Source: Candidatus Nomurabacteria bacterium
GTDB lineage: Bacteria > Patescibacteriota > WWE3 > UBA101185 > UBA10185
Direction: 5' to 3'
Length of the DNA: 64,000 nucleotides
Assembly (NCBI GenBank): GCA_020631855.1
Contig: JACKGU010000001.1
Location: forward strand, 167,601 to 231,600
Shown: piece by piece, positions 1 through 61,328 of the stretch
Layout: each line of letters begins with the position of its first letter
Numbering within the stretch: position 1 is the stretch's first letter
The notes under the pieces: generated by a model
Told to the model about the DNA's origin: nothing
Seen by the model: only the letters and a program-made list of their open reading frames with translations
The model's database searches: none
Position numbers and translations under genes: made by a program

Positions 1-364
1 TATATTGTCAAACTTAGTTAAAGATAGGTCTAATCCGATGCTCGATGAAAAAGAAATCGCAAAAGTCTCTTCTTTAAAAGGTAACTTTAGCGGTAAGCCC
101 GCTGCAGTAAATGCGAACAATTTAATAGGCGAGGTTTATAAAAGATATGGCAAGGATCTTGTGATAGTAGGTTGTGGGGGTGTTTTTAATGCCAAAGATG
201 CTTATGAAAAGATAAAACTTGGTGCAAGCTTGGTTCAGTTGGTGACGGGGCTTGTTTATGAAGGGCCTACAGTTGCAGCAAATATAAATATGGGGCTGGT
301 TGAGTTGTTAAGAAAAGACGGATACGAAAACATTTCTGAAGCTATAGGTGTAGGTAATGCATAA
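1..364 (+). CDS. pyrD: Dihydroorotate dehydrogenase, C-terminal part. The gene is 5'-truncated by the window edge.
   Basis: The reading frame is open from position 2. The translation ends in the conserved DHODH C-terminus: ...GNFSGKPA...IVGCGGVFNAKDAYEKIKLGASLVQLVTGLVYEGP... Confidence 0.7.
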   Translation, partial: ILSNLVKDRSNPMLDEKEIAKVSSLKGNFSGKPAAVNANNLIGEVYKRYGKDLVIVGCGGVFNAKDAYEKIKLGASLVQLVTGLVYEGPTVAANINMGLVELLRKDGYENISEAIGVGNA

Positions 365-1782: not shown

Positions 1783-2163
1783 TTAGTTAATTTTGAATTT
1801 TTCCATTTGTCTTAGTATTCCTCTGCCGTGCTGACTATTAAAAACGGCTGTCATATCTGTATTACATTCGAATATGTCTCCTCCACTGTGTAAGTCTTTA
1901 AAGTTTGTCACGTCGTATTTTTGTGAATTTATGGTTATTATGCAGGTTTCCAGATTTGAGAGGGTTTCTGGTTTTTGGCCGGTATCAAGAGTTTTGGTAA
2001 GGTTGTTGTCAATAGTAGTTTTTGTATTTTCTACTTCGGCTAAGTTTTGTAATTTTTCTTTATTTTGCGCTGTGTCCGGTTGATAGTAAGTATATATGGC
2101 CCCGGTGAGTAAAATTGTAATAATTACTACATTAGCTATTAAAATCTTATTTATGAGTTTCAT
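1783..2163 (-). CDS. Cytochrome b5-like haem-binding domain protein with an N-terminal signal anchor.
   Basis: YDVTNFKDLHSGGD...FNSQHGRG matches the cytochrome b5 pattern YDVTxFxxxHPGG...H, which supplies two His ligands. The N-terminus (IANVVIITILLTGAIY) is hydrophobic. Its ATG overlaps the stop codon of the upstream gene by 4 nt. Confidence 0.6.
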   Translation of the reverse strand: MKLINKILIANVVIITILLTGAIYTYYQPDTAQNKEKLQNLAEVENTKTTIDNNLTKTLDTGQKPETLSNLETCIITINSQKYDVTNFKDLHSGGDIFECNTDMTAVFNSQHGRGILRQMEKFKIN

Positions 2164-3488
2164 TTTAATGCAAAATCCTCAAAAACTATGTTTTTTCTTG
2201 GAACTCCTAATTCTATAAACTGTTTGGCTAGCGATGCCATCATTTCTGTTGGCCCACAGAGCATCACCAGCGTATTCCTTACGTCCTTGCGGGCATCTTG
2301 CATGAAAACTCCCATTTCCGGTGCTAGAGTTTTTGCGGCTTGAATTTTACCTTTAATGCTAGAATACCAAAAAATAATTTCAATATTGCTCGTTTCTTTC
2401 GTTGTCGCTATAAGTTCGTTTTTATATACAGCATCGGTCTCGTTATTGGTGCAGTAAAACAAATGCATTTTGGTAGCGGGATCTGTCATATTAGATCCCA
2501 GTATGCTTAAAAAGGGCGTTATGCCTATTCCACCGGCTATAGCTATTATCCGTGGGGTTGTATTTATTTTGGAGCTAAAATCCCCGTAGGGACCATACAG
2601 GTACAGTTTTGCGCCTTTTTGTATTTTGCTGAGCTGTTCGGTATAGTCGCCTAAAATCTTAATTGCCAGTCTAATTTTCTTTGAGTTTGTTGGAGACGAG
2701 ATAGAGAAGGGGTGCTCCTCAGGTCCGATTTTAAAATCAGCTGTTCTCATGAATACGTATTGCCCTGCCTCAAAAATCATAGGTCGATTCTCGTTTTTAG
2801 GATTTAGTATAAGCTCAAAAATTGAACCTTTTTTAATAATTTCATCGACTACATAGTTGTACTTCGAGGTGAAGTTCTTGTAAATTATCAGTTTATACAT
2901 ATAGGCACTTATGCCTACTGCTACAACGCTCAGCATCCAAATTTTAAGAGGCTCGTTTCGTGAAACATCGCTTGTTATTGTTCCAATGTGTAGGCCTACA
3001 AAAACGAGCACCACCCCCATAAATTGATGGCTTATTTTCCACAAATGGTAGGGTATTTTGTTATATAAAGTTAGTGCCAGAAGAGCAATAAGTAGGTAAA
3101 AAGCGACAACCCCAAAGTTGTTCTCTAGGGTTTTACCCACAAAAAAATACTGAAGCGGAGAGGTGTCGCCGCCCCATGCATTCAAAACAAGAAGAGTAGG
3201 GTGATACAAGACCAAAATGAAAGCTGTGATGCCGATCACATGATGCACTCTATAGATTCTGTCCAAGCTGCCAAAAAGTTTTTCCAGGAACCTAGCTCTG
3301 GTACTTAAGACGTATGCCCATGACAGCAAGGTCGCAGCAATAAGAGAGAAGTATTGCGATAGCGCCAGAAAAGGCTTGTCGGCAATAGCTAAGATTGAGT
3401 TCTTGGACATTAAGAATAGTGCGGTTGTTAAGAAACATGAGACTAGAACTACGTATGGTCCCAGATTTTTTAATCCTTTAAATAACAT
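2160..3488 (-). CDS. Ferric-reductase-domain (NOX/FRE-like) membrane flavocytochrome.
   Basis: Six transmembrane helices carry two bis-His pairs at i,i+13 spacing (HVIGITAFILVLYH and HQFMGVVLVFVGLH). It has the FAD motif HPFSISS and the NAD(P)H motifs GGIGITPF and CGP. Confidence 0.75.
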   Translation of the reverse strand: MLFKGLKNLGPYVVLVSCFLTTALFLMSKNSILAIADKPFLALSQYFSLIAATLLSWAYVLSTRARFLEKLFGSLDRIYRVHHVIGITAFILVLYHPTLLVLNAWGGDTSPLQYFFVGKTLENNFGVVAFYLLIALLALTLYNKIPYHLWKISHQFMGVVLVFVGLHIGTITSDVSRNEPLKIWMLSVVAVGISAYMYKLIIYKNFTSKYNYVVDEIIKKGSIFELILNPKNENRPMIFEAGQYVFMRTADFKIGPEEHPFSISSPTNSKKIRLAIKILGDYTEQLSKIQKGAKLYLYGPYGDFSSKINTTPRIIAIAGGIGITPFLSILGSNMTDPATKMHLFYCTNNETDAVYKNELIATTKETSNIEIIFWYSSIKGKIQAAKTLAPEMGVFMQDARKDVRNTLVMLCGPTEMMASLAKQFIELGVPRKNIVFEDFALK

Positions 3489-5246: not shown

Positions 5247-5446
5247 AGAGGCGCGGCAGGGACTAGTTAATTATGTTGCGGATTACTTTATGCACGAAGT
5301 AGGGACGTCTGCATAATTTTATACTTGGGGCGATGTATATTGATACTGATCGACAGAGATCATTAAGAGTGGAAGGCCTGCTGCTGCCTACCGAAAACCC
5401 GACGATATATTCCTTGATCCAGCGTATCGTTCTTCTTGGCAGGGGC

Positions 5447-5520
5447 GGAAGGAATCGAACCCTCACAAACGGTTTTGGAGACCGTTGTACTACCATTATA
5501 CGACGCCCCTACATTTTTAC
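5447..5520 (-). tRNA. tRNA-Trp (anticodon CCA).
   Basis: The reverse complement AGGGGCGTCGTATAATGGTAGTACAACGGTCTCCAAAACCGTTTGTGAGGGTTCGATTCCTTCCGCCCCTGCCA folds as a cloverleaf. The anticodon loop is CTCCAAA. Confidence 0.9.
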
Positions 5521-5595
5521 CCGCCTTATTAGCTCAAACTACTAACTGAACCAAAATGTGTTAAAAACTCAAAGTATCGAGTCTTTTTTTTAAGA

Positions 5596-5672
5596 TGGAG
5601 CCCGCTGGCAGAGTCGAACTGCCGACCTCATCCTTACCATGGATGCGCTCTAACCAACTGAGCTAAGCGGGC
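5596..5672 (-). tRNA. tRNA-Thr (anticodon GGT).
   Basis: The reverse complement is GCCCGCTTAGCTCAGTTGGTTAGAGCGCATCCATGGTAAGGATG...TTCGACTCTGCCAGCGGGCTCCA. The anticodon loop ATGGTAA sits in a CATCC/GGATG stem. Confidence 0.9.
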
Positions 5673-5928: not shown

Positions 5929-7056
5929 TTGATTATTTCTCACGGTTTGCTAAAATGCGGACACCGCAAGACTAGTAAAATGTTAATAACAGGGTTTTTA
6001 ACACAGAAACATATAACAAAGCTAAAAAAACTTATTTTTAGCGAGGAGGAGAAATTTTTAGTAAATAAAATTGCTCATTTTTCAATCCGACTAGGGCAAA
6101 CCTCAATAATCACTGCAGTTATAAAATCTCTTGAGGTTGGAATGACCTTTTTACTATATGTATTTTTAAACAAAGTGCGTTTATTGGGACTCTCTGCTCT
6201 GTACCCTCTATTTTTTTTATATGTGGCAGTCTCTGTGCTCGCATTTTTTTTGAGAACCGTTGTTTTTGGCTACTATTCTAACGCTTATAGTCGCTTGATA
6301 GGTGCAGTTTTGGACAACTTGATCTCGTTTTTACTGGATGACTACAGAGTTTCTTTAGCCACCGTGTCGGCAAATTTTCCAAGCCCTAAAGATATTGCTA
6401 ATAAAATCTCTGACGCCAGTAAAAGTTTGCTTTATATTGTATCGGTGCTATCTTCGATTATCGGCTTGGTGTTAGGGTTGCTAGTCCTTCTTGTCGCCTA
6501 TTTGTTTGTTGGGGAGCCTTTTTTGATAAATGTTGTTCTTATGTCTTTGTTATTTCTTGGGGCCTTCGCAATTTACGTTAGATTCGGATCTTTATACTAT
6601 CCATCGCAGAAAGCCTTCATGTCTTTAGTGGATAAATTCGACATTGATTTTAGCGGTACTCGGCCTTTGTTAATTCGTACAAACCTGAATTTATACCCTA
6701 AAGAGCTTAATAAGGCCCTTGAAGATACGGTGCGTGTCACTACCAAAATTAATTTAATTTCCAATGCTACCGCCTATATAGGTCCGATGTTGTTGGTTTT
6801 ATCCTTTTTTATACCCGCTCTTTCGCAGGATCTCAGCCATTATATAATTGTTGCCCTGTTCGTTGTTTCTAACACATTTGGGCATTCTGGCATTGTGAGT
6901 CACTACTATGCGGTAAATTTGTCCCGTGAACGTTTGGTAGAGTTTGATGCCATGTTAGACACAGTTCTTGAGACAGGGGCCGAATTAACCCCCCTCAGAT
7001 ACGACGATATATCAAACCATTATTTCAAAGATAATCCCTTTAAATCTCGTATCTAA
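5929..7056 (+). CDS. ABC-exporter-type transmembrane domain protein (six helices with long cytoplasmic loops).
   Basis: Three helix pairs are separated by 60–70-aa loops, the type-I exporter topology. It lies immediately upstream of an ABC-like ATPase gene. The start is uncertain and could be at M18. Confidence 0.5.
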   Translation: MIISHGLLKCGHRKTSKMLITGFLTQKHITKLKKLIFSEEEKFLVNKIAHFSIRLGQTSIITAVIKSLEVGMTFLLYVFLNKVRLLGLSALYPLFFLYVAVSVLAFFLRTVVFGYYSNAYSRLIGAVLDNLISFLLDDYRVSLATVSANFPSPKDIANKISDASKSLLYIVSVLSSIIGLVLGLLVLLVAYLFVGEPFLINVVLMSLLFLGAFAIYVRFGSLYYPSQKAFMSLVDKFDIDFSGTRPLLIRTNLNLYPKELNKALEDTVRVTTKINLISNATAYIGPMLLVLSFFIPALSQDLSHYIIVALFVVSNTFGHSGIVSHYYAVNLSRERLVEFDAMLDTVLETGAELTPLRYDDISNHYFKDNPFKSRI

Positions 7057-7126: not shown

Positions 7127-8023
7127 ATGAAAAATGTTTATCTAGACCATCTATTTCTTGAGAAAAATAAAGTTCATTTTTTAATAGGTGATTCCGGAAT
7201 AGGAAAATCTATATTTGGCAGGCTTATTACACTCAGGTACGAAGCTTTTAAGTGTGATTTTTTGGGTATGGGGGATTGTGATTTTAGAACATTTGAAAAT
7301 TTGGACGACGGATTAAAGGAGCTTCACTTTAGTAGTATAAGAAACATTGATACTAGCTATAGAAACGCGATTGGGGCCTATTTGGCATCAGATTTTGAGT
7401 GTAGGTTCTTTTTAACGCAGCTTGTGGAAACATTAAAAAGTAAGGCCGAGGTGGCAGGCTTTTTTGATTCCAGTGTGGATTACTATGGATCTAAGACAGC
7501 CGAGATATTAAAAGTGATGGAAGGCTATGATTTTAAATTTTGTAAAGAGGATTTTCTTGGGCTATCTAAGCAAGAACTTCGTGAATTAAGAGAGTGTTTT
7601 AGATCCCGAATAGAGTGGTTCCCCTCATCTAAAATATTTGCACTTTCGGCAATTTTTGAATATATGACTTTTACACATCTAAGATCTTTTATACCTGAAG
7701 CTTCGCTGTATTTTATGGATGCGGTACTATCCGAGCCTCCTGTTTCTCAGGGGCAGAGGCGCAGGATTCTTTTGGCTCTTGATGTATTGCTTGGAGGAGC
7801 CGTGATGGTTATTGATGAGCCATTTAGCAATATTGATCTTGGGGCGTCAAAAAGCATTTTATACAAGTTAAAAAACTATAATCAGGTTAATAATTCAGTG
7901 CTGTTAGTTTTGGACCAAAAAATACATCCCGAATTACTAGAGGTGTGTCGAAGCGAAGGTAATTTAGGTAAAGTTTTAGGCTTTTCTGATGAAGGTAAGG
8001 GTCTTAAGATAGTCGAGTTGTGA
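7127..8023 (+). CDS. Degenerate ABC-type ATPase (nucleotide-binding domain) with an ~80-aa insertion.
   Basis: Walker A is GDSGIGKS at aa 21–28. The signature-like motif VSQGQRRRILLA is at aa 206–217. Walker B is VMVIDEP at aa 226–232 and the D-loop is SNIDL. The Walker A to signature distance is about 180 aa, against about 100 in canonical domains. Confidence 0.5.
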   Translation: MKNVYLDHLFLEKNKVHFLIGDSGIGKSIFGRLITLRYEAFKCDFLGMGDCDFRTFENLDDGLKELHFSSIRNIDTSYRNAIGAYLASDFECRFFLTQLVETLKSKAEVAGFFDSSVDYYGSKTAEILKVMEGYDFKFCKEDFLGLSKQELRELRECFRSRIEWFPSSKIFALSAIFEYMTFTHLRSFIPEASLYFMDAVLSEPPVSQGQRRRILLALDVLLGGAVMVIDEPFSNIDLGASKSILYKLKNYNQVNNSVLLVLDQKIHPELLEVCRSEGNLGKVLGFSDEGKGLKIVEL

Positions 8024-8124: not shown

Positions 8125-8210
8125 TGGTGCCGGGAGCAGGATTTGAACCTGCGTAGGCTTGCGCCAGCTGATTTACAGTCAGCCCCGTTTGGCCACTTCG
8201 GTATCCCGGC
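8125..8210 (-). tRNA. tRNA-Tyr (anticodon GTA).
   Basis: The reverse complement GCCGGGATACCGAAGTGGCCAAACGGGGCTGACTGTAAATCAGC...GGTTCAAATCCTGCTCCCGGCACCA has a long variable arm. The anticodon loop is CTGTAAA. Confidence 0.9.
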
Positions 8211-8283
8211 ACGTTAAGTCAGTAAGTCTGTGGCAGTAGCCTGCGACAGAACTATAGCACTTTTGCATGAGCAGAACTCTATC

Positions 8284-8358
8284 TGGAGCCAGCGGTGAGA
8301 GTCGAACTCACGACCTATCCCTTACAAGAGGATTGCTCTGCCACTGAGCTACGCTGGC
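8284..8358 (-). tRNA. tRNA-Thr (anticodon TGT).
   Basis: The reverse complement GCCAGCGTAGCTCAGTGGCAGAGCAATCCTCTTGTAAGGGATAGGTCGTGAGTTCGACTCTCACCGCTGGCTCCA is a perfect cloverleaf. Confidence 0.9.
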
Positions 8359-15939: not shown

Positions 15940-16260
15940 ACATTATTTCTGGCTCATGCTACTATCCATGCTAGAAGTTGTGAGTCTAAAGATTCGCAAG
16001 CTAGGTCCCGAAGGTCCCTGGCAATAGCCTTTTAGTATTTAATGAAAAGGCACAGCTTTCGGGTGATGGTTTATTTATAAACCCAATTAGTAAAAGGGAA
16101 GCAGTAGGTAAGATTTAATCTTTGCTGTAAGAATGTAATTATTAAACACCTCTCCTTTCTCTTTAAATTATTGCCAAGTGCAGATTTTTATAAATACTGC
16201 TAAATGCTAATTTGTGTAAAAACGAATTTGCAGTTTATAAATATTAATTTTAAGGAAATT

Positions 16261-17391
16261 ATGTCAAAACCATATAAGTTACCAAAAGTCGAAGATCTTT
16301 TTTCAGCAGGGGTGCACTTTGGCCATCAAGTCCGAAGGTGGAATCCTGCGATGTCGGAATATATCTACGACACAAGAAGAAACGTACATATTATAGATTT
16401 ACAAAAAACCCACGCTAAGCTCGAGGAGGCTTGCGATTATTTATACGATTTGGCGTCTAAGGGAGAGAAAATAATTTTTGTCGGTACAAAAAGACAGGCA
16501 AAAGAGATGCTCGAAGTAGAGGCCAAAAGATGCGGAGCATTATTCGTTTCAGAGCGGTGGTTGGGTGGAATTATAACTAATTTCCAAGAAGTTAAGAAGA
16601 ATATAGATAGGTTTCTTATGCACATTAGAAAAATGGAAAGCGGAGAATATCAATCTTACACAAAGAAAGAACGCTTGTTGATTGAGAGAAAAATTGAAAA
16701 ATTACGCAAAGCAATTGGCGGCCTTGTGGGCTTACATTCGAGTCCTGCGGCACTGTTTGTTATTGATTCAAAAAGAGAAAAAACAGCTATAAGAGAAGCA
16801 AAGGCAAGCGGTGTAAAAGTTGTAGCTCTTGTTGATACAAACTCAAATCCTCGAGATGTTGATTATGTAATTCCGGGTAATGACGATGCAATAAAATCTG
16901 TTGCTTTAATATTAAATGCAGTCTCTGATGCCATTGAGGCAGGGTATAAGGTTTTTGAAAAAGATGCCGCAAAAATAGCTGATGAAAAAAAGCAAAATGA
17001 TTCGGATAAAGCAAAAGATGAGGTCTCTCTCGATAAGGTTGTGCCTGTTGTAGTTACATCAACTGAATCTCCTGTGGCTTCGTCCGAAGCAGGAAAGAGG
17101 CTAATCGAAAGAGTTAATAAAGGCGATGTTTCGGATCTAGACAGCGCTAAAGGCATAGAAGATACCGTAGAAGATACAGAAAAGTCTACCAGCAAGACAG
17201 ATAGAGAGCCTGTTGCAAAGAAAGTAGAAAAAAAAGAGAGTTCAAGGGAGAAAAAGGTTGTAGAAAAAGTATCAAAGACTAAAGCTGAAGAAAAGGCAAA
17301 AAAACCTGTCAAGAAGGCTACAGCAAAGGTAGCGGGAAAAAAGCCAGAAAAAACCCCAGTAAAAAAGTCAACTAAAAAAAGTAATAAATAA
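16261..17391 (+). CDS. rpsB: 30S ribosomal protein S2 with a ~140-aa K/E-rich C-terminal tail.
   Basis: The N-terminus AGVHFGHQVRRWNPAM... is the S2 core. Residues 250–376 form a lysine/glutamate-rich low-complexity tail. Confidence 0.9.
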   Translation: MSKPYKLPKVEDLFSAGVHFGHQVRRWNPAMSEYIYDTRRNVHIIDLQKTHAKLEEACDYLYDLASKGEKIIFVGTKRQAKEMLEVEAKRCGALFVSERWLGGIITNFQEVKKNIDRFLMHIRKMESGEYQSYTKKERLLIERKIEKLRKAIGGLVGLHSSPAALFVIDSKREKTAIREAKASGVKVVALVDTNSNPRDVDYVIPGNDDAIKSVALILNAVSDAIEAGYKVFEKDAAKIADEKKQNDSDKAKDEVSLDKVVPVVVTSTESPVASSEAGKRLIERVNKGDVSDLDSAKGIEDTVEDTEKSTSKTDREPVAKKVEKKESSREKKVVEKVSKTKAEEKAKKPVKKATAKVAGKKPEKTPVKKSTKKSNK

Positions 17392-28964: not shown

Positions 28965-29492
28965 CTAATCCTGATTTAGGCTTAAGATTTCTACAACCTC
29001 AAATTCTTTGCCAAGCGCTTTTTCCGCTTTTTCTATTTGCGACAGCTGTCTTGGAAAGTTTACGAGGGTTCTATCCGGAATGATTATTACATCGGGATTT
29101 AGCTGTACATATCTTTGAGTTTGAATCTCAAACGAGGCGTCGGAGTTGTAGTCATTGAGGCTAGAATCCAACCTCACTACGTAATCGACGCTTTTTTGCT
29201 GAAGCATCATTTGGAGCCTATTCTCGTAAGAATTGATGGCCGTGGGAACTTTTTTGATTGCTTTGAGGGTTTCGGTTGTCTCCATGCCGACAAAGAGTGT
29301 GTCGCAGTAATTTTTGGCTATCGTTAGATAGTTTATGTGCCCGATATGTAGCATATCAAAAATACCCGAGAGGTAGCCACATTTGATTTTTTGTTTTTTA
29401 AGTATGTTTATACGTTTTATAGCTGTTGAAAACGACAGTATGTTTGTGTTTAAAAAAAGAAAATTATCGGTATTCGCTGTAAGCAAGTGCAT
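28965..29492 (-). CDS. HxGH nucleotidyltransferase of the cytidylyltransferase type (TagD/RfaE-domain-II-like).
   Basis: GIFDMLHIGHINYL..AKNYCDTLFVGM matches G.FD.LH.GH...L..A......L.VG. Confidence 0.5.
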   Translation of the reverse strand: MHLLTANTDNFLFLNTNILSFSTAIKRINILKKQKIKCGYLSGIFDMLHIGHINYLTIAKNYCDTLFVGMETTETLKAIKKVPTAINSYENRLQMMLQQKSVDYVVRLDSSLNDYNSDASFEIQTQRYVQLNPDVIIIPDRTLVNFPRQLSQIEKAEKALGKEFEVVEILSLNQD

Positions 29493-29534
29493 GTTTTTAT
29501 TTTATCAAATCGGCTTTTATTGTATGCTTTAGAA

Positions 29535-30917
29535 ATGGATATTGTTCATAGATCGCGTCGGTTGGCAGCAGGCAGGGCAGGGAAGGAGTCTTTCTCCGGA
29601 CCTGTTGTGTATTGGATGAGTAGAGACCAGCGGGTGGGGGGCAACTGGGCCCTGTTATTTGCTCAGAAAATAGCCCTGGAAGCTCGCAAGCCTTTATTGG
29701 TGGTGTTTTGTCTTGTAGACTCGCATTTGACTTCTCAGCGAGGCGATAGGAACTATTCTTATATGCTTGGCGGACTGTCGCTGGTTCGAGAAGATCTTGC
29801 AGACCTAAATATACCCTTTATTATCCTAAATGGAGAGCCTCCCCAGAAATTACTGCAGTTTGTCGAGAAGTTCAGCGTTTCTGCTTTAATAAGCGATTTT
29901 TCCCCTATCAGAGAAGGGAGGGAGTGGCGAAATGGTGTAGCAAAGAAGATTAATTGCTCTTTTTACGAAGTTGACACACATAACATTGTTCCCGCATGGG
30001 TGACGTCGGACAAACAGGAATACTCAGCAAGAACCATAAGAAGCAAGCTTGTCAAAAAGCTGCCAGACTATCTTGTACCATTTAAGGTTGTACAAAGGCA
30101 GAATAGGGAAGTTACCGAAGACTTCCTAACTTTGATACCGAATGAGATTGGTTTTACAAATAAAATATTAAGTGTGAAATCTTACGAAGGTTTAAGTGCA
30201 GTTTCTCCCGAGAGGTTATTACAGGAATTTATAGACTTGAAATTAGACTCATACTCTAGGTCTAGAAACAACCCTTTAGTAGATGGTACCTCTAATCTGT
30301 CAGCCGCACTTCATTTCGGCCATATCTCATCTCAAGGTGTAATTCTAAAGATTATAGAGGAGTTTGGAAAAACGAACAAATATGATGTTCAAAAGTATCT
30401 TGAAAACCCCAAGGGTAACTTTTTCGATGAAATTATAGTGAGAAAGGAGCTGGCGGATAATTTTTGCTTATATAATAAAAACTATGACAATTATCTCGGC
30501 TTTCCCAATTGGGCGCAAAAATCTCTGAACGCGCACCGTGGCGATAAACGAGATACAGTTTATACTATAAGGCAGCTGGAGCAGGCTGAAACACACGATG
30601 ATCTTTGGAATGCGGCTCAGGTTCAGATGGTTTCGACAGGAAAAATGCATGGATATTTGAGAATGTATTGGGCAAAAAAAATTCTCGAGTGGAGCTCGTC
30701 TCCGGAAGAGGCTATTATTTCGTCTATCTATTTAAACGATAAATATGAGCTAGATGGAAGAGATCCAAATGGTTATGCCGGCATTGCGTGGTCGATCGGG
30801 GGACTGCATGATAGGCCTTGGTTCGACCGGCCGATTTTCGGACAAGTAAGATACATGAGTTATAGTGGAATGAAAAGAAAGTTCGATGTTGAATCCTTTG
30901 TAAAGCTTTATGTTTGA
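29535..30917 (+). CDS. phr: Deoxyribodipyrimidine photolyase (class II-like).
   Basis: VVYWMSRDQRVGGNWAL is the hallmark of class II photolyases. The C-terminal FAD-binding region is SAALHFGHIS...W..L. The start at M17 avoids overlap with the divergent upstream gene. Confidence 0.75.
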   Translation: MDIVHRSRRLAAGRAGKESFSGPVVYWMSRDQRVGGNWALLFAQKIALEARKPLLVVFCLVDSHLTSQRGDRNYSYMLGGLSLVREDLADLNIPFIILNGEPPQKLLQFVEKFSVSALISDFSPIREGREWRNGVAKKINCSFYEVDTHNIVPAWVTSDKQEYSARTIRSKLVKKLPDYLVPFKVVQRQNREVTEDFLTLIPNEIGFTNKILSVKSYEGLSAVSPERLLQEFIDLKLDSYSRSRNNPLVDGTSNLSAALHFGHISSQGVILKIIEEFGKTNKYDVQKYLENPKGNFFDEIIVRKELADNFCLYNKNYDNYLGFPNWAQKSLNAHRGDKRDTVYTIRQLEQAETHDDLWNAAQVQMVSTGKMHGYLRMYWAKKILEWSSSPEEAIISSIYLNDKYELDGRDPNGYAGIAWSIGGLHDRPWFDRPIFGQVRYMSYSGMKRKFDVESFVKLYV

Positions 30918-31201: not shown

Positions 31202-34200
31202 TTAGGAAAGCTTTCTTCTAACTCTTATACCTGCTACTGCTGAGGTTAAGCCCAGTACAGTAAGTGCAAGGTTAGTTTCGGCTCCTGTCTCTGGAAGCTC
31301 AGTTATCTCTTTGTTTACGTAACAAACTTTTGCATCTTCGCTTCCTACCTCATCTCCGTCGTAGTAGACTTCGACTTTGTTCTTTACACACTTATCTACG
31401 TTCTCTTTGTCAAATTCAGAGTCTCTGACCTTGACTTCGATTATGAAGGTCTTGGTTTTTCCTTCTTTGAAGTTTTCCCAGTATTCAGTCAGTCCTGATC
31501 CGCCTATTTTCTTAAGTTCGTCAGGTAGGAAGTCTTCCATCTTCATGTTGTCAAGTTCGTCTTTACCTTCGTTTTTAACTCTAATTCTGAACTCTAAGAC
31601 GTCGTCTTTTTTGACATTGGTTACTTTATCTAACCATTCATCGTCGCCCTTGATTCTAACTTCTTTATCAACATCTATCTTTATTTCCTTTTCTTCTTCC
31701 TCTTCATCTTCTATTACTTTCAAGTCAAAATCAGCGTCGTCACATACCTTTTCGTCTTTAGGCATTCCGGCAACTATACATACGATGTTCTCTGAGTCTA
31801 AATTGTGACTTCCTGTATTGTCGTAGTCGACAACTGTGGACACAAAATATACTACTTTAGTTTCACCGATTTTTAATGTGCCTATATCTAAGGTACAGTC
31901 TTTTCCTGCACCTATGCCGTTGCTACATGACCAATCAAATCCGTACGCTTTACTCTTTTCTGCATTATACTCAGTATATGCAGGTACTTTGTCGCTAATT
32001 ACCACATTGGCCAATTCGGTTTCACCGGTGTTTCTTACGCTTATCTTAAAGGCTATATCGTCACCTTTTTCGTATGTAGTGTCGTCTCCGGTTGACTTAG
32101 AGATATCTATATCTTTTTTGATGTCGATTCCCGGTACAGGTACAATATCGTCATCCCAAACCAGCGTATTTGTTACGTCGTCGCAGTATACTTTTTCAAA
32201 GTCCCCTGCTACTTGATCTGTAATACATGCTTGGTTGTAGATTTCATCATCTTCAGATTTTTCGATATCCGATTTGATTTTAGCAACTACTTTTAATGTA
32301 ATTCTTCCGCCTGCATCTAAATCGAACCCGTCTGAGTCTGATCTAATAACCCCTGTAGATTCGTTGTACACAAAATCATTTCTGAAGCTCTCAGGAGATA
32401 CTGACAGAGCAACAGTAGCGTAGTCTATTTCACTAGGTACTGCGTCGTTGAAGGCAACGTCTGTTGCATCGCCCTTACCGACATTTGCAATTCTGATCTC
32501 GTATCTTATCTGTTCGCCTGGTTTGTATACTTTGTTACCATCAAGGTTGACCTTCTCTATTGTTAGTTCAGGTTCTTCTACCACTATGTCTTCCATCATG
32601 CAAAGGTAGTCTTCAGTACACTGAGGATCGCTTGCATTAAATGGGTTGCTACAATCTTGAGTTTCACCTGCAAGATTTGTAAACTCTAGGCTTGCGTGGT
32701 TAGTATACTTTACTGAATTTGCTGGGCAAATTCCATTGCTGTTGTTGTCAGGCATGTCTGTTACTTTAACCTGTGCATATATATCAAACTTAGCATCAGG
32801 CTGTAAGTCTACTGTAGTTATGTTACATACAAGCTCGCTGTTATTTGTAATAAAGTTACACTGGTTGTAGTTGAAACCATCGTAATCGGTTGTCAATTTA
32901 CCTGTGTACTCAAGTACATTGTTATCCACTTCATTTAGGTCATCGTTAATCAACATCGGGTTAGCTCTAACTACTCCTCCGTCTTGCCATGATCCAAAGT
33001 ACGCACCTTCTCCTGTGTTAGTTACACGGAATTTTATCCATGCCTTGTCGTCTACTTTGACTTGGGTAATTTCATTCTGTGAAGGTTTGTCGTTACTATC
33101 TCCATAGAATTTTTTTACTATATCAAGATCAAAGTCTTCTTCTTCAACTCTAAGCAGACAAATGTCTGTAATTGAGCATGAAGGGTCGTTGGCGTCGTCT
33201 GTACAAGTCATTGTGTCGTCGTTTAAGAATACTGTGTTAGGTACTTCGCAGTCCTCGTTTGTTAGGTATCCTTCAAGCACGTTAACTTTGAAATATACTT
33301 TGCTTGTTTCGCCTTTATCTATAGAACCTTCGAATACACAGCTGACATCCTGCCCGCTATTTGTACAAGTAAAGTCGCTGTTTTCAGGCTGATACTGCCC
33401 TTCATATCTAAAGTTATTGGCTAATGTGTCAGACAGTGTTCGTGTTTCGTTGTATACATACTGTCCCTTGGTGTTGTCCAAAGTGAATTCGACCCAAACA
33501 TTTTCGCCTTCGTAAGCTGTTTCTTTTACCTGTGAAGGGTTAGGCTGCCCGTTATTATCGGCAACAAATCTTTTTTGAACTTCGATTTCGCAAGAACCTG
33601 TGTACCAAACAAAGGCATCTTTAGCTAAACAGAAGGTAGGAACCCCGTTTGGATCCAAAGGCCAGTTTGCAGGATCAGAAGGATCTCCACCATTATCTAT
33701 TACTAAGTAGTGTTGGGTAATCATGTCGGTTGTACAGGTTGCGTTGAATATATCCATCTGTACTGTACTTCCGCATGTAAGTCCGGTTCCGGTTTCAATC
33801 TTTTTCTTTTCGTCTAATTGACCTAAGCTTAAAGATCTTCCACTTAATGCTTTATACACATAGTTAGCTGATTTTCCACAGGCTAACCAAGGGTTGCCTC
33901 CGGTGACTTCAGCATCGCAAACGTACGCATGTGCCTTTTCGTTAATGCTGCCGGCTTGGCAATAAGGTGCATTAACATCCAGTTCATATGCTGTTCCGCC
34001 TTCGTATCCTGGGAATGTATAACACTGGCCTTCCTGATTTACAGGGTAGCCTCGGTCGTTACACATAGTTTTACTTAAATCTAACCATCCCGGGTTCCAG
34101 TTGGTGGCTCTAACATCTGTGACGTCATTGAACGGAGGTATAAAGGTAATGTTATTACCGTCTACGTCGTGTGTTCCACAAACGTCTGTGAAGCCGTATT

Positions 34201-34432
34201 CCATGCTTCTCGCCAATACTGGCCCGCCTTGTGTCTGTCTTCCTCCAAAGCTTATATCTAGTGAGCTGATAAGCCCAGCAGAGTAAGCTGCGGTGGCTGA
34301 GGACACTACTGCAACAACAGCAATGACGCTCACGACAGTAGCGCGGCTAAATTTTTTACTTCTTTTTCTGTGAGTCATAGATTTGAACACAGAGAATATT
34401 TTAGAAAAAATACTTTCTTTTCTTTTATTCAT
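31202..34432 (-). CDS. Giant LPXTG-anchored cell-surface protein (1076 aa) with repeated DUF11-like beta-sandwich modules.
   Basis: The C-terminus is LPETG (nt 31283–31297), then a hydrophobic stretch, then RVRRKLS. The N-terminal signal peptide is MNKRKESIFSKIFSV...VVSVIAVVAVV. Internal modules repeat (e.g. VYKPGEQIRYEIRIANVGKGDATDVAFNDAVP and VRNTGETELANVVISDKVP). Confidence 0.8.
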   Translation of the reverse strand: MNKRKESIFSKIFSVFKSMTHRKRSKKFSRATVVSVIAVVAVVSSATAAYSAGLISSLDISFGGRQTQGGPVLARSMEYGFTDVCGTHDVDGNNITFIPPFNDVTDVRATNWNPGWLDLSKTMCNDRGYPVNQEGQCYTFPGYEGGTAYELDVNAPYCQAGSINEKAHAYVCDAEVTGGNPWLACGKSANYVYKALSGRSLSLGQLDEKKKIETGTGLTCGSTVQMDIFNATCTTDMITQHYLVIDNGGDPSDPANWPLDPNGVPTFCLAKDAFVWYTGSCEIEVQKRFVADNNGQPNPSQVKETAYEGENVWVEFTLDNTKGQYVYNETRTLSDTLANNFRYEGQYQPENSDFTCTNSGQDVSCVFEGSIDKGETSKVYFKVNVLEGYLTNEDCEVPNTVFLNDDTMTCTDDANDPSCSITDICLLRVEEEDFDLDIVKKFYGDSNDKPSQNEITQVKVDDKAWIKFRVTNTGEGAYFGSWQDGGVVRANPMLINDDLNEVDNNVLEYTGKLTTDYDGFNYNQCNFITNNSELVCNITTVDLQPDAKFDIYAQVKVTDMPDNNSNGICPANSVKYTNHASLEFTNLAGETQDCSNPFNASDPQCTEDYLCMMEDIVVEEPELTIEKVNLDGNKVYKPGEQIRYEIRIANVGKGDATDVAFNDAVPSEIDYATVALSVSPESFRNDFVYNESTGVIRSDSDGFDLDAGGRITLKVVAKIKSDIEKSEDDEIYNQACITDQVAGDFEKVYCDDVTNTLVWDDDIVPVPGIDIKKDIDISKSTGDDTTYEKGDDIAFKISVRNTGETELANVVISDKVPAYTEYNAEKSKAYGFDWSCSNGIGAGKDCTLDIGTLKIGETKVVYFVSTVVDYDNTGSHNLDSENIVCIVAGMPKDEKVCDDADFDLKVIEDEEEEEKEIKIDVDKEVRIKGDDEWLDKVTNVKKDDVLEFRIRVKNEGKDELDNMKMEDFLPDELKKIGGSGLTEYWENFKEGKTKTFIIEVKVRDSEFDKENVDKCVKNKVEVYYDGDEVGSEDAKVCYVNKEITELPETGAETNLALTVLGLTSAVAGIRVRRKLS

Positions 34433-34890
34433 TTTTTTACGTGGAGGGCAAATCCTACGTCCAAAAACTATAGACCAAAAAGGGTTATTGAAATGGGGCC
34501 TATAGTTCATATAATTTTGAACTGTTGAGATTGTATCATAGAACCCTATAGCAGTCAACTCTAAGGTATAAAGCAATTTCAACATCCCGATGTGGTCTGT
34601 TTCTCGCATTTCTTATTCAGAAATTTATTGTTATATAGTTATTCCCAACTTATTTGTAGATGTCTTTTTGGGGCTCTGTTGCAGCGTTCTCACAGATTGT
34701 CTCTCTGCGTCTAGTTCCCGGAGCTTGGCGGGCGCTTGTGGTTTTATGGCACCCCTCACCCTCGGTCTTATGGCACATATTTGAAATATTTGCTTGTAAT
34801 AATGTAGTACAGAAGTTGAACTTTTAAGTTGGGCCGGGGCACTAAGTAAGTACTTTGAACTCTTCTCTTTATGAAGTAAAATACCTCTGT

Positions 34891-44963: not shown

Positions 44964-45947
44964 TTACTTTCTGTTGGTCTCTGCTCCTACAACACCTATT
45001 ACAATTATTATTATGCCTAAAAATGCAGCCGGAGTAGGGGATTCTTGCAAAAGTACAAACGAGATAGGTATAGTAAAAAGAGGCCCTAAATAGCTGAAAA
45101 TAGCAGTATCTGCGGCTTTGGCTCTTTTTAGCCCCCATTCAAACGCTACATACGCAACAATAGAAGACAAGATAGCCATATACAAAATACCGGCTATAGG
45201 TATTATTGTTAGATTTGTAAGATCAAAGGCTTTCATATACCTATTCTCGATAAGCATTAATGGAAATATTGATACAAGGCTCACATAAAAGGTAAAACCG
45301 GTATGAAGGGTAGGGGAGTAACTTCGTGTCATTCGATTAAGCCGGAGTCTCTTTAAGATTGTTGTCAGGGTTGATGAATTTTCGCCCATGACGTGCTTGG
45401 ATACAATTATATAGGCTGTGAAAGCAACATTATAAATAAGCACTGCCAGGTTGCCTAAAACTCGAAGCCCCTGCTCTAGCTCCGTATGTTGACCTTTAAA
45501 CAGCATCGGCTCGAGCATTATTAGCAAAGTACCCAGAGTTGCAATAAAAACTCCCAGCTTTGCTTTATAGTTCAGTTTTTCGTTGTAGAAAAAATGACCC
45601 GCAGCAATAACCATAATAGGTGCAGATGTTCCTAGAATTGCAGCATCCAGAGATGTTGTGTATTTTACACCCACAAATACAAATGCCAGCGCTGTCTGTC
45701 CAAGTAAACCCAGTATTACAAGATTTTTTATATCTTTTGTTGCTATCGGAGTTTTTTTAAGTTCAACAATCATCACAGGCAACATAAGGATGCATACAAG
45801 CAGAAAGCGTAAAAATAAAAATGTAAAAACAGGTATATACTGCTCTGTTATTTTTATAATCGGAAGGGCTCCGCCCCATATTGCGGTAGCAAGTATTAAT
45901 GCTCCGTAGGCACGAAGTTTAAGGTTGTTGTGTGTTCTATTAGGCAT
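44964..45947 (-). CDS. DMT/EamA-family transporter.
   Basis: It has ten transmembrane helices and the EamA N-terminus LRAYGALILATAIWGGALPIIK. The start is at MPNRTHN. Confidence 0.65.
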   Translation of the reverse strand: MPNRTHNNLKLRAYGALILATAIWGGALPIIKITEQYIPVFTFLFLRFLLVCILMLPVMIVELKKTPIATKDIKNLVILGLLGQTALAFVFVGVKYTTSLDAAILGTSAPIMVIAAGHFFYNEKLNYKAKLGVFIATLGTLLIMLEPMLFKGQHTELEQGLRVLGNLAVLIYNVAFTAYIIVSKHVMGENSSTLTTILKRLRLNRMTRSYSPTLHTGFTFYVSLVSIFPLMLIENRYMKAFDLTNLTIIPIAGILYMAILSSIVAYVAFEWGLKRAKAADTAIFSYLGPLFTIPISFVLLQESPTPAAFLGIIIIVIGVVGAETNRK

Positions 45948-45995
45948 TGTTTTAATTATACATAAATCGAAAAAGTTATGTGATAATATATCAAT

Positions 45996-46649
45996 ATGGA
46001 AATTACATACATAGGGCATTCGTGCTTTAAAATCAAAGGAAAAAATATTTCATTAGTTATTGACCCTTACGACCCTACTATGCTTGGTTACAAATTACCG
46101 ACTCTTAGTGCTGACGCTGTTTTATTGACACACGATCATCCGGACCACGCAAATGTTCAAGGCGTGAAGGATTACAGGTTAGTTATTTCGGCTCCGGGAG
46201 AGTATGAAATTTCTGATGTTTTTGTTTATGGACTTCAAACATTTCATGATGAATCGGAAGGCTCCAAGCGAGGCAATAATACTATTTATTCAATAGAAAT
46301 AGATGATTTTAGTTTAATGCATCTTGGAGACTTGGGGCATATATTATCTGCCGAAACCTTAGAAAAGATAGGTACTGTAGATGTTTTGATGATCCCGGTG
46401 GGCGGAGTTTACACTATTGATTCTGCAGCTGCGGTAAAGGTAATTTCTTCAATAGAACCGGGGATCATTATTCCCATGCATTATCAAACAGCGGATCTAA
46501 AAATGGCCGGAGACAAATTAGACTCCTTGGATAAGTTCTTAGACGAGATGGGTATTGAAAAGCCAAGAACTGAAGGGAAGTTAAAGTTGTCATCGCGTAG
46601 CGATGTGCCGGCTGAGTCTACTGTGACTGTTCTAACCCCGGAACACTAA
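45996..46649 (+). CDS. MBL-fold metal-dependent hydrolase.
   Basis: It has the HxHxDH motif (LTHDHPDHAN). Confidence 0.7.
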   Translation: MEITYIGHSCFKIKGKNISLVIDPYDPTMLGYKLPTLSADAVLLTHDHPDHANVQGVKDYRLVISAPGEYEISDVFVYGLQTFHDESEGSKRGNNTIYSIEIDDFSLMHLGDLGHILSAETLEKIGTVDVLMIPVGGVYTIDSAAAVKVISSIEPGIIIPMHYQTADLKMAGDKLDSLDKFLDEMGIEKPRTEGKLKLSSRSDVPAESTVTVLTPEH

Positions 46650-50116: not shown

Positions 50117-50506
50117 ATGGGTGATACATTTATAAACAAAACAATTCTCCTTGTAGAAGATGAAGATGATATAAGATCAGTATATGCTGAAGTGCTTAAA
50201 GACGACGGCTTTACTGTTATAGAAGCTTCAGACGGCTTGTCGGCATATGATTTGGCCGTGAATAAATTTTGGGATTTAATGCTTTTGGACATCATGATCC
50301 CAAAACTTGACGGTATAGGTTTAATGAAAAGATTGGCTAGGGAAGATAAGCTGGATTCACGCCCGGTAATTTTGCTTACAAATCTAGGTAATGACAGTGT
50401 TATAGCTGAAGCTTTTGACTTAGGTGCCTCCGGTTACTTAATGAAGGCGGAAATTACGCCGGACAAGATTCTGCAGGAGATAAAGGCTTATCTAAAAATA
50501 AGCTAA
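50117..50506 (+). CDS. Stand-alone response-regulator receiver (CheY-like) domain protein.
   Basis: ILLVEDEDDIR...DLMLLDIMIPKLDG carries the phospho-acceptor Asp. The conserved Lys region is LTNLG. Confidence 0.8.
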   Translation: MGDTFINKTILLVEDEDDIRSVYAEVLKDDGFTVIEASDGLSAYDLAVNKFWDLMLLDIMIPKLDGIGLMKRLAREDKLDSRPVILLTNLGNDSVIAEAFDLGASGYLMKAEITPDKILQEIKAYLKIS

Positions 50507-50566
50507 TTTGATTCAGATTTTTGTTATAATAACCTTTGGTATTAATATATGAGGAAAGGAAGTAAG

Positions 50567-50935
50567 ATGGCGAAAATAATTCTCATAGAGGATGAACAGG
50601 CTCTTTCAGAGGTATATTCCGAAGTATTAAGAGATGCGGGGTATGAGGTGTCGCAATGCTTTGACGGCGAGGAAGGCCTAAAGACTTTAAGAGCAGGTTC
50701 TTGGGATTTACTTTTGCTGGACTTAATGTTGCCTAAAATTGATGGAATAGAGATTTTGCAGCAGCTTGTGAATGAAGGCTTGCTTGAGGGTAGAAGTGTT
50801 ATAATGCTGACAAATTTAGGCAGCGATGAACTTGTAAATAAATGTTCGGTACTTGGCGCAAAAGAGTTTTTGATCAAATCTGATATTGACCCTAAGGTGT
50901 TGGTTGAGGCTGTAGGAAAGGCGCTCTCAAAATAA
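50567..50935 (+). CDS. Stand-alone response-regulator receiver domain protein (paralogue).
   Basis: MAKIILIEDEQ...DLLLLDLMLPKIDG...MLTNLG. A good RBS GAGGAAAGGAAG sits upstream. No output domain and no histidine kinase is present in the window. Confidence 0.8.
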   Translation: MAKIILIEDEQALSEVYSEVLRDAGYEVSQCFDGEEGLKTLRAGSWDLLLLDLMLPKIDGIEILQQLVNEGLLEGRSVIMLTNLGSDELVNKCSVLGAKEFLIKSDIDPKVLVEAVGKALSK

Positions 50936-60308: not shown

Positions 60309-61328
60309 ATGAATAATTTCAAACATTATGTGTCGAACTATTTAGAGTACTGTGAAATAGAAAAAAATCTTTCTCAGAACACTATTAAAATGTACGACTT
60401 TTATTTAAATGATTATTTAACATGGGCCCAAGGATATTTAGGTAAGGATGAAATTCATATAGAAGACATTACATACGAAGTTGTAAAGAAATACAGGCTT
60501 TTTTTAAATAGAAGAAAAAGCACGAAATCGCATGAAGAATTCAAGAAATCGACCCAAAAGACTTTTTTGGTTGCTCTAAGGTCCTTCCTTAAGTATTTAA
60601 TAGTTGAGGAAAATTTGGCTGTTTTGTCGCCGGATCAAATAATTTTAGGTAAGCCGGAACCCTCGATTCCTAAAGTTTTGGATGAGACTCAGTTAGTGAG
60701 GTTGCTGGACGTGCAAAATCTAAGTAAGAAGTCGGGAATTAGAGACAGGGCTATACTTGAGACTCTTTTTAGCACAGGTTTGCGGGTGGGTGAGCTTGTG
60801 GCGTTGAACAGAGACGAAGTTAACACGGATTCAGGAGAATTTACGGTCATTGGTAAAGGCAAGAAGGTTCGAACAGTTTATCTAAGCGAGAATGCTAAAG
60901 TTTGGATACGTCGTTATTTAGATACGCGACGCGATGACTACGCTCCCCTTTTTTTGCGTTATTCCGGAAAAAAAATGGAACCGTCCGATATTGAAGGCGA
61001 ATCTTTAAGATTAACTGCCAGAAGTGTACAGCGTTTAGTTAAAAAATATGTTTTACGTTCGGGCTTAGCAGTTGATGCAACCCCTCATACTTTGAGGCAC
61101 ACTTTTGCCACCGGCCTATTGCAGGAAGGCGCCGACCTTAGAAGTGTTCAGGAGTTACTTGGTCATAGTAATGTTTCTACAACTCAAATCTATACCCATG
61201 TAACAAATCGCCAGCTTAAAGAAGCGCATAAAAAGTACCATAAAGATATTACAACAACTGCAGATTCTAAAAATGATTATGTTGAAAATGATCCTCGTCG
61301 AATAAAATCGGAAGAAGAGATAGAGTAA
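60309..61328 (+). CDS. Tyrosine recombinase (XerC/XerD-like integrase).
   Basis: It has an N-terminal SAM-like domain and a catalytic C-terminus: LRVGELVAL (the R), HTLRHTFATGLL (HxxR), and LLGHSNVSTTQIYTHV (H and Y). Confidence 0.85.
   Translation: MNNFKHYVSNYLEYCEIEKNLSQNTIKMYDFYLNDYLTWAQGYLGKDEIHIEDITYEVVKKYRLFLNRRKSTKSHEEFKKSTQKTFLVALRSFLKYLIVEENLAVLSPDQIILGKPEPSIPKVLDETQLVRLLDVQNLSKKSGIRDRAILETLFSTGLRVGELVALNRDEVNTDSGEFTVIGKGKKVRTVYLSENAKVWIRRYLDTRRDDYAPLFLRYSGKKMEPSDIEGESLRLTARSVQRLVKKYVLRSGLAVDATPHTLRHTFATGLLQEGADLRSVQELLGHSNVSTTQIYTHVTNRQLKEAHKKYHKDITTTADSKNDYVENDPRRIKSEEEIE

Follow-up and report, generated by a model that had tools for sequence, protein, structure and literature searches.

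In bacteria of the candidate phyla radiation (CPR), a gene cluster has been described that comprises a putative ferric reductase (pFre), the MAPR-like protein cytb5MY, two atypical b5-like proteins named CBLA and CBLB, and a two-component system (bioRxiv preprint 10.1101/2021.11.17.468889, section 3.5). Among 7645 CPR genomes, this study from 2021 counted 1427 with a ferric reductase domain (FRD), and in 185 of the 1427 a Cyt-b5 gene lay no more than 10 kb away; it reported no such colocalisation beyond the CPR and called the function unknown (10.1101/2021.11.17.468889). The same study noted that tyrosinate-ligated MAPR proteins hold ferric haem tightly and ferrous haem weakly (10.1101/2021.11.17.468889). 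No functional follow-up of this work was found in the literature collection searched. A second closely related system is the NOX of Streptococcus pneumoniae (SpNOX), in which cryo-electron microscopy has revealed an unusually exposed outer haem and no canonical O2 site (PMC11564096). SpNOX reduces cytochrome c directly under anaerobic conditions at 124.7/min, compared with 48/min for O2 and 3.6/min for iron, and the authors suggested that O2 is perhaps not the physiological acceptor and proposed an unidentified protein acceptor instead (PMC11564096). Here, a two-gene locus related to both systems is analysed in a stretch of 64,000 nucleotides, referred to as the window, from a Candidatus Nomurabacteria bacterium (assembly GCA_020631855.1, contig JACKGU010000001.1, positions 167,601 to 231,600 of the forward strand). 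The locus encodes a reductase of 442 aa and a small cytochrome b5-like partner of 126 aa. Both open reading frames (ORFs) lie on the minus strand and overlap by four bases:

2160-3488, minus strand: reductase gene, 442 aa plus stop (ORF, Pfam, SpNOX match, AlphaFold AF2 model)
1783-2163, minus strand: partner gene, 126 aa plus stop, predicted to encode a membrane-anchored extracytoplasmic shortened cytochrome b5 (ORF, family search, profile-versus-structure match)
2160-2163, minus strand: ATGA stop/start overlap coupling the reductase and partner genes (sequence)

The pair is read here as a two-component trans-membrane electron relay, to which we assign a rough probability of 0.6. This reading takes in the loading of the partner with haem and the transfer of electrons from the outer haem of the reductase to the b5 domain, and it is built on sequence comparisons and structure models; the physiological role proposed below is a guess. 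The identity of the two proteins and the conservation of their association are the evidence that carries it, and they are presented first.

At the level of sequence and fold, the 442-aa protein is confirmed as an SpNOX-like ferric-reductase-domain/FNR-type di-haem flavocytochrome. Its Pfam scores for Ferric_reduct (51 bits, with a cut-off of 28), FAD_binding_8 (32.1 against 22), NAD_binding_1 (51 against 22) and NAD_binding_6 (26.6 against 22.2) are all above threshold, and its nearest solved relative by sequence is SpNOX (8qt6, E 1.2e-25, residues 50-442). The AlphaFold model, calculated from an input alignment of 35 homologues (pLDDT 89.9, pTM 0.85), has six long membrane helices (residues 10-28, 39-61, 75-104, 121-141, 147-170 and 179-206) followed by an FNR-type domain. 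The loops on its outer face are short, as in SpNOX. The top fold matches of the model are three SpNOX structures (TM 0.77-0.86), which rank above NOX2, DUOX1 and NOX5. A preliminary description of the locus, made from the sequence alone, had placed the protein in the FRD/NADPH-oxidase superfamily, and this assignment holds in every one of these comparisons. The parts of the reductase are the following:

2871-3461, minus strand: six-helix transmembrane haem domain, residues ~10-206 (model helices, Pfam)
3243-3245, 3201-3203, 3027-3029 and 2988-2990, minus strand: codons of the predicted haem ligands H82, H96, H154 and H167, respectively
2574-2864, minus strand: FAD-binding beta-barrel, residues ~209-305 (FAD_binding_8; model strands 209-301)
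2703-2714, minus strand: HPFS motif
2163-2552, minus strand: NAD(P)H-binding domain, residues ~313-442 (NAD_binding_1, NAD_binding_6)
2511-2534 and 2250-2258, minus strand: GGIGITPF and CGP motifs, respectively, to which a conserved near-C-terminal F439 is added

Conservation in the reductase was scored on an alignment of 35 homologous sequences, in which H82 and H96 on helix 3 and H154 and H167 on helix 5 are invariant. The ligand of SpNOX aligns with H82 and not with H83, which is not conserved, and the spacings are therefore 14 for H82/H96 and 13 for H154/H167, equal to those of SpNOX (H69/H83 and H129/H142). The preliminary description had given both pairs a spacing of i,i+13, which is right for the second pair and one residue short for the first. 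By alignment, the inner haem would be held by H82/H154 and the outer haem by H96/H167. The flavin and nucleotide motifs were named correctly: HPFS occupies residues 259-262, GGIGITPF 319-326 and CGP 411-413, with P260 invariant and H259, F261 and S262 nearly so, and with G320, G322, T324, P325, C411, G412 and F439 invariant in the NAD(P)H domain. F439 is aligned opposite the third-from-last residue of SpNOX, and by numbering it is probably the equivalent of F397, a residue mutated in SpNOX studies. The membrane domain, the His pairs and the FNR motifs place the protein in the FRD+FNR ('NOX/FRE-type') architecture of the FRD superfamily, with haem binding predicted. With an FAD/NAD(P)H domain of its own, the reductase is not an MsrQ, in agreement with the preliminary description. 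The possibility of an ordinary MsrQ was rejected also in view of the window, where the Pfam domain scan, which covered ORFs of at least 120 aa, detected no Oxidored_molyb/MsrP protein.

The assignment of the partner to a trimmed bis-His b5 fold is solid on both profile and model grounds, in agreement with the anchor and b5 domain first proposed for it. A word-indexed search with the partner had returned only the protein itself and gave it the appearance of an orphan; an exhaustive HMMER search overturned that reading, since 697 representative clusters matched at E <= 1e-3, 168 of them at E <= 1e-10. Pfam Cyt-b5 was matched by all 17 partner ORFs found adjacent to reductases (best E 9e-44). A family profile made from such adjoining ORFs matched cytochrome b5 structures with E values down to 1.7e-26, the best of them being the periplasmic bacterial cytochrome b558 (1cxy). 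H92, which lies in the HSGG motif, and H112 align with both haem ligands of flavocytochrome b2. The two His and C74 are invariant and C100 nearly so among the 17 partner ORFs and among 26 family members, and 1cxy carries Cys at both positions equivalent to C74 and C100. This conservation makes C74-C100 a candidate disulfide; for the disulfide of b558, the literature search gave no report. The AlphaFold model of the partner shows an anchor helix at residues 2-26 (pLDDT 89-96), a linker of low confidence (~50-56) and a well-modelled domain at residues 71-126 (86-95). When this domain was searched with Foldseek, each of the top 50 matches in the PDB was a cytochrome b5 domain, most with an rmsd of 1.5-2.3 A over 58-61 columns. 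The parts of the partner are listed below:

2086-2160, minus strand: predicted N-terminal signal-anchor helix, residues 2-26, N-terminus inside (model, positive-inside rule)
1954-2085, minus strand: predicted disordered low-complexity linker, residues 27-70 (pLDDT ~50-56)
1786-1953, minus strand: shortened b5 haem domain as predicted from model, Foldseek and conservation, residues 71-126
1888-1890 and 1828-1830, minus strand: codons of the putative b5 haem ligands H92 and H112, respectively
1942-1944 and 1864-1866, minus strand: codons of the conserved Cys pair C74 and C100, respectively

Members of the partner family usually share one plan, with a short positive N-terminus, a single hydrophobic helix, 34-101 residues of low-complexity linker rich in S/T/P/N/Q/A/G, and a core of ~53 residues with the pattern C-I-I-T-x-x-G-x-x-Y-D-V-T-x-F-R-x-x-H-S-G-G-D-I-F-x-C-G-T-D-M-T...Q-H. 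The b5 domain of the window has no N-terminal 'LTxxEVAKHN' element, and its segment between HxGG and the second Cys is shortened. Some relatives contain tandem repeats of the core in 2-4 copies. Such tandem proteins (P0122, P0123, P0129; loci L082, L087, L105, L126, L133, L142) join 2-4 cores by Ser/Thr/Pro linkers, often end in an acidic tail, and are encoded upstream of the reductase in operons of the order b5-reductase-b5. They could form a chain of b haems.

The b5 domain is predicted to be extracytoplasmic, on the face of the membrane where the outer haem of the reductase lies. Summed over 42 family members, the net charge is +120 on the N-terminal side of the anchor compared with +15 in the 15 residues after it, and by the positive-inside rule this asymmetry predicts an N-in/C-out orientation, as the preliminary description had supposed for the window protein. 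The stalk of the family, rich in Ser/Thr/Pro/Asn, is consistent with an outside location; some relatives have acidic tails, and three of the 17 partner ORFs have a C-terminal extension that resembles the PepSY type to the eye only. These features, together with the Cys pair and the affinity to the periplasmic 1cxy, are the reasons for placing the domain outside.

The pairing of reductase and b5 genes is not a matter of chance, and it is conserved in CPR bacteria and DPANN archaea. Linkage was counted from both sides. The forward set held 80 reference-genome loci encoding reductase homologues, among which a clear b5-domain gene was the immediate, same-strand neighbour of the reductase in 9/16 CPR, 3/5 DPANN and 5/9 unclassified loci from metagenome-assembled genomes (MAGs), compared with 0/3 in Thermoplasmatota and 1/47 in other phyla. 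The DPANN occurrences are L006, L009 and L027; an archaeal aIF-2 gene lies nearby in L009, and the archaeal occurrences are therefore considered real. Three further CPR loci from Saccharimonadales were counted apart. There, the gene after the reductase (L020:1675-2520, L021:7149-8204, L024:6667-7434) encodes an anchor, an extra domain of ~100 residues and a divergent b5-like C-terminus with AYHKGKSG in place of the HPGG motif. One b5 match of the full-length partner profile, in L002, covered the anchor and linker only and was gone with a domain-only profile; it was left out of the counts. The reverse set was seeded with the small-protein family and consisted of 80 metagenome loci, of which 60 were assessable and 20 too short. 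A reductase was adjacent in 49 of the 60, in the orders reductase-b5 (31), b5-reductase-b5 (9) and b5-reductase (9), and 26 of the 40 reductase-to-b5 junctions had the 4-nt overlap. The divergences of the two proteins are correlated across 38 pairs (Mantel r 0.56, with 0/2000 permutations as high), which fits inheritance as a unit. The translational coupling and the pairing first noticed in the window are thus found again in related genomes. The view that such a locus is unusual in a reduced genome did not survive comparison with the preprint's counts for CPR genomes given above.

Other lineages place other extracytoplasmic haem proteins after the reductase homologue. An uncultured Marinimicrobium MAG, gammaproteobacterial, encodes a b558-type periplasmic b5 (L070:970-1362; HPTPAS...WCGGDAT...HS) 18 nt after it. 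This one locus, from a contig of 6.6 kb, is a hint that the Ectothiorhodospira-type cytochrome b558 may have a NOX-like reductase as its partner. Rhizobium and other Pseudomonadota (L029, L034, L044) have a multi-cytochrome-c protein of ~1100 aa in that position; its genes (L029:7223-10480, L034:7364-10648, L044:7085-10552) lie within ~100 nt or overlap, and the proteins carry a C-terminal DUF4384. This arrangement may represent a different pairing of a reductase with a haem acceptor. In two MAGs, the reductase homologue is followed by a cytochrome c (Rhodothermales, L062) and by a cytochrome b561 (Saprospiraceae, L023), respectively. These cytochrome c and b561 neighbours fit a wider scheme in which the reductase has an extracytoplasmic haem-protein acceptor of its own.

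The proposed relay would work as follows. The FAD domain of the reductase would oxidise cytoplasmic NAD(P)H, and single electrons would pass from FAD to the inner haem (H82/H154) and on to the outer haem (H96/H167), for which exposure to solvent is expected in view of outer loops that are short, like those of SpNOX. From there, the electrons would go first to the co-translated partner, with its bis-His b-type haem domain outside the membrane on a flexible tether of ~45 residues, and the reduced partner would pass them to an acceptor beyond the membrane surface. Our guess is that the pair lets the cell dispose of reducing equivalents, under regulation, to an oxidant outside, for which Fe(III), ferric haem, O2 and other oxidants are candidates. 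The host lineage is generally described as being without respiratory chains, and none is encoded within the window. Measured against these results, the observation of the preliminary description is confirmed and its interpretation partly supported, while the function is still hypothetical.

Several points weigh against the relay. Eleven of the 60 assessable b5 loci have no adjacent reductase, and several close reductase homologues have no b5 neighbour; the linkage is therefore strong, not obligatory. The correlated divergence of the two proteins could also be the product of shared phylogeny alone. The partner alone reaches 22.2 bits with Pfam Cyt-b5 (PF00173), slightly under the gathering cut-off of 23.7, and compared with classical b5, the first strand-helix and the greater part of one pocket helix are missing from its b5 domain. 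With this trimming and this score, haem binding by residues 71-126 of the partner is plausible or even likely as a prediction. CPR bacteria are also usually without haem biosynthesis, and three haems would therefore need to be scavenged.

The neighbourhood of the pair bears on the rival explanation that survives best, which is that the locus serves the acquisition of haem or iron. For this analysis, 337 neighbour ORFs were clustered from 67 loci holding both genes. The recurrent neighbours were an OmpR-type response regulator (19), a sensor kinase (17), an anchored MAPR-like b5 of ~120 aa (16) and an ABC ATPase (8). The MAPR/PGRMC-like protein (L004:5529-5894, L132:5628-5993 and 14 more loci) has the pattern YNG...GxVYDVTxGxxFYxxGGxYHxLAGKDSS and probably corresponds to cytb5MY of the preprint. 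MacB/FtsX-type ABC components were observed near the pair in L009:2832-5798 and in 8 CPR loci, together with an OmpR-type regulator and a kinase. The combination of these three presumably resembles the haem-sensing and efflux systems of the HssRS-HrtAB type.

According to the acquisition hypothesis, the b5-type proteins would be surface handlers of haem or iron, comparable to haemophores and NEAT-domain relays, and the reductase would reduce ferric haem or Fe(III) for release and for import by an organism unable to make haem. Such a role would suit the fuller operons, in which several b5-type haem proteins occur along with tandems of 2-4 domains and the MAPR-like protein with its Tyr motif (FY..GG.YH), and it would suit the tight hold of MAPR proteins on ferric haem and their weak hold on ferrous haem (10.1101/2021.11.17.468889). 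The regulator, the kinase and the occasional MacB/FtsX-type neighbours, which recall HssRS-HrtAB, point the same way, and true ferric reductases do exist in the superfamily. Six-coordinate bis-His b5 domains are, however, classically electron carriers that do not exchange haem; iron is poorly reduced by SpNOX (3.6/min, PMC11564096); and beside the pair of the window there are no extra haem-binding proteins, regulators or obvious uptake transporter. We consider this explanation unlikely, while acknowledging that it overlaps the relay, being the same electron path with its end use specified.

A second rival explanation takes the reductase for a true NADPH oxidase that reduces O2 at its outer haem to superoxide/H2O2, for signalling or attack, with the b5 protein as an accessory or scavenger. 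The fold is NOX-like, every cofactor motif is present, and the rubrerythrin directly after the b5 gene in a DPANN locus hints at an oxidant context. This rubrerythrin (L027:1616-2194, Woesearchaeota; 298.6 bits against a cut-off of 200) begins ~150 nt after the b5 gene and is a possible link to peroxide or other oxidants. Four residues past the outer ligand H96, all 35 homologues have a Leu, L100. We take this to be the position at which eukaryotic NOX, in NOX2 numbering, carry the His of the O2-reduction centre, four residues after the outer-haem ligand. A centre of the NOX2/NOX5 type (His at +4 of the outer ligand, plus Arg) therefore has no His here, and this counts against an oxidase. Many of the host genomes come from anoxic groundwater or sediment metagenomes, and an oxidase would leave unexplained the tight, translationally coupled linkage to a haem protein at the electron exit. 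SpNOX, the closest characterised relative, does oxidise NAD(P)H with O2 as acceptor; its authors nevertheless question O2 as the physiological acceptor and saw no O2-reduction centre of the canonical kind (PMC11564096). The oxidase explanation is accordingly improbable, more so than haem or iron acquisition. A cytoplasmic b5-reductase/b5 pair, in which the FNR domain would reduce an anchored b5 on the cytoplasmic face and so feed a desaturase or oxygenase, would agree with the homology of the C-terminal domain to cytochrome b5 reductases (PDB 7rom, 2eix, 1ndh and others) and with the JGI label 'cytochrome b involved in lipid metabolism' on relatives of the partner, but it can hardly be right, given an N-terminal anchor whose strongly positive N-flank in 42/42 members predicts N-in/C-out, a Ser/Thr/Pro-rich stalk, a Cys pair as in periplasmic b5 and a PepSY-like extension (by eye) in 3/17, a conserved di-haem membrane domain that would be left without a role, and no desaturase or P450 linked to the pair in the 67 related loci or among the window ORFs.

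The trans-membrane relay remains the preferred reading, and it invites a bolder extension. Tethered b5 proteins might be the physiological acceptors of SpNOX-type NOX in general and, together with the tandem multi-b5 proteins, might build an extracellular conduit of b haems in CPR and DPANN, which have no respiratory chains and live attached to hosts; through it, electrons from NAD(P)H would reach oxidants outside or acceptors on the host surface. This extension is speculative and is held here with considerable doubt. If it were true, the conduit would be a minimal form of extracellular electron transfer, independent of quinones and of cytochromes c and common to two domains of life via gene transfer. 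CPR bacteria and DPANN archaea are regarded as fermentative and without electron-transport chains. A conserved exit route for NAD(P)H electrons would alter the models of their redox balance, of their iron and haem economy and of their interaction with hosts. As for the acceptor of SpNOX, CPR and DPANN genomes encode a candidate in the operon of the reductase itself, often with a 4-base overlap, and two small recombinant proteins would be enough to test the idea of a protein acceptor directly.

The rest of the window consists of housekeeping genes for translation factors, tRNA synthetases, topoisomerase, proteases and DNA repair. Beyond the pair, the Pfam scan of ORFs of at least 120 aa detected no other cytochrome, molybdoenzyme, haem-synthesis gene or sensor kinase, and no second copy of the reductase or the partner was found elsewhere in the window. 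The window also has no MAPR-like protein or second b5, and its sole receiver-domain ORFs lie ~47 kb off; these are two adjacent stand-alone receiver domains at 50117-50506 and 50549-50935 on the plus strand (129 and 128 aa), without an output domain and without a kinase among the window ORFs of at least 120 aa. An EamA transporter gene lies upstream on the strand of the reductase, its end 29 nt from the reductase gene, and its co-transcription with the pair is possible in this genome. The preliminary description had suggested that EamA and a divergent TrmB-type regulator might belong to the unit. As conserved operon members, both had to be dropped, and so had a HAD hydrolase, none of them having a match among the 337 neighbour ORFs of the 67 loci. 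A scan for promoters and terminators gave 10 matches where 10.8 were expected, which is chance level, and was not used as evidence.

Some other genes of the window deserve mention. At the window edge (5-364, plus strand), ~1.4 kb from the b5 gene, an ORF encodes the C-terminal end of a dihydroorotate dehydrogenase. Some classes of this enzyme require quinone or the FNR-like partner PyrK. The flavin domain of the reductase matches the PyrK family weakly, which is probably generic FNR similarity. At 5929-7056 (plus strand), a multi-pass membrane protein of 375 aa without a Pfam family is followed by a protein of 298 aa (7127-8023, plus strand) with a weak, partial match to ABC_tran; the two ORFs, to judge from their sequences, may be a degenerate or divergent ABC-type pair, with tRNA genes on either side (5440-5672 and 8128-8358). 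The ribosomal protein S2 gene (16204-17391, plus strand) encodes 395 aa, of which the S2 domain takes up residues 32-247 only, leaving a C-terminal extension of ~150 residues. A protein of 1135 aa with DUF11/DUF7507/DUF7619 repeats (31202-34609, minus strand) is probably a large surface protein. A DNA photolyase (29487-30917, plus strand) suggests exposure to light. A second EamA-family transporter is encoded at 44964-46019 (minus strand) and a tyrosine recombinase of the Phage_integrase family at 60309-61328 (plus strand).

Comparison with known systems places the locus among several partial parallels. The most distant are CYBDOM, in which a cytochrome b561 is fused to an extracellular DOMON b-haem domain, and the multi-haem c-type conduits. 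They share with the window pair the principle of a trans-membrane di-haem module that delivers electrons to an extracytoplasmic haem domain and on to external substrates such as Fe(III), but they are unrelated in fold, in electron donor (ascorbate, quinol) and in haem type, and the comparison is one of analogy, no homology being claimed. Eukaryotic NADH-cytochrome b5 reductase and cytochrome b5, as well as the fused Ncb5or, likewise combine an FNR-type flavoprotein with a b5 haem carrier. There, both parts work on one cytosolic face and the b5 has a C-terminal tail anchor, whereas in the window two transmembrane haems would lie between them and the b5 is predicted on the opposite face. The MsrQ-MsrP (YedZ-YedY) system is closer in logic, since an FRD di-haem membrane protein serves a dedicated extracytoplasmic redox partner encoded by an adjacent gene. 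MsrQ, however, is without an FAD/NAD(P)H domain and is fed by quinol or by the separate flavin reductase Fre, and MsrP is a molybdoenzyme rather than a haem protein. For the partner alone, the best parallel is cytochrome b558 of Ectothiorhodospira vacuolata (1cxy), an extracytoplasmic protein that agrees with the partner in the positions of two Cys and two His. Cytochrome b558 is soluble and exported via a signal peptide. It is also a full-length b5, whereas the window protein is membrane-tethered and trimmed.

For the reductase, the closest counterpart is SpNOX (8qt6, 8qq7, 8qta), with which it shares the domain order, the size class, the 14/13 His spacing, the FAD and NAD(P)H motifs, the near-C-terminal Phe and the short outer loops, at an identity of only ~23-24%. 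Both Streptococcus loci retrieved (L069, L078) have no b5 gene by the reductase, whereas the window encodes a candidate acceptor in the operon. The whole locus is closest to the CPR pFre/cytb5 cluster, which it overlaps in having genes for an FRD reductase and a membrane-anchored cytochrome b5 in a CPR genome. Related loci reproduce the neighbours of that cluster, namely the response regulator, the kinase and the MAPR-like b5. The window differs in being a two-gene core without cytb5MY, a second b5-like gene or an adjacent two-component system; it does not match the ancestral state proposed in the preprint (cytb5MY, two further b5-like genes and a two-component system) and is a reduced form of the cluster. 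Colocalisation of FRD and cytochrome b5 genes in CPR had already been reported there, and the locus is therefore no new kind of system; as a minimal version of a noted cluster, the window itself is of modest value. The preprint described the cluster from CPR only, whereas the pairing is found here also in three DPANN loci and a gammaproteobacterial MAG, and it did not discuss outside topology, 4-nt coupling or the link to SpNOX. What is added here is thus the predicted outside orientation, the coupling, reciprocal linkage statistics, the DPANN and gammaproteobacterial occurrences, the SpNOX link and the alternative haem-protein partners. The locus is a minimal two-gene member of an already noted, uncharacterised cluster, and it reveals which two parts form the core of that cluster.

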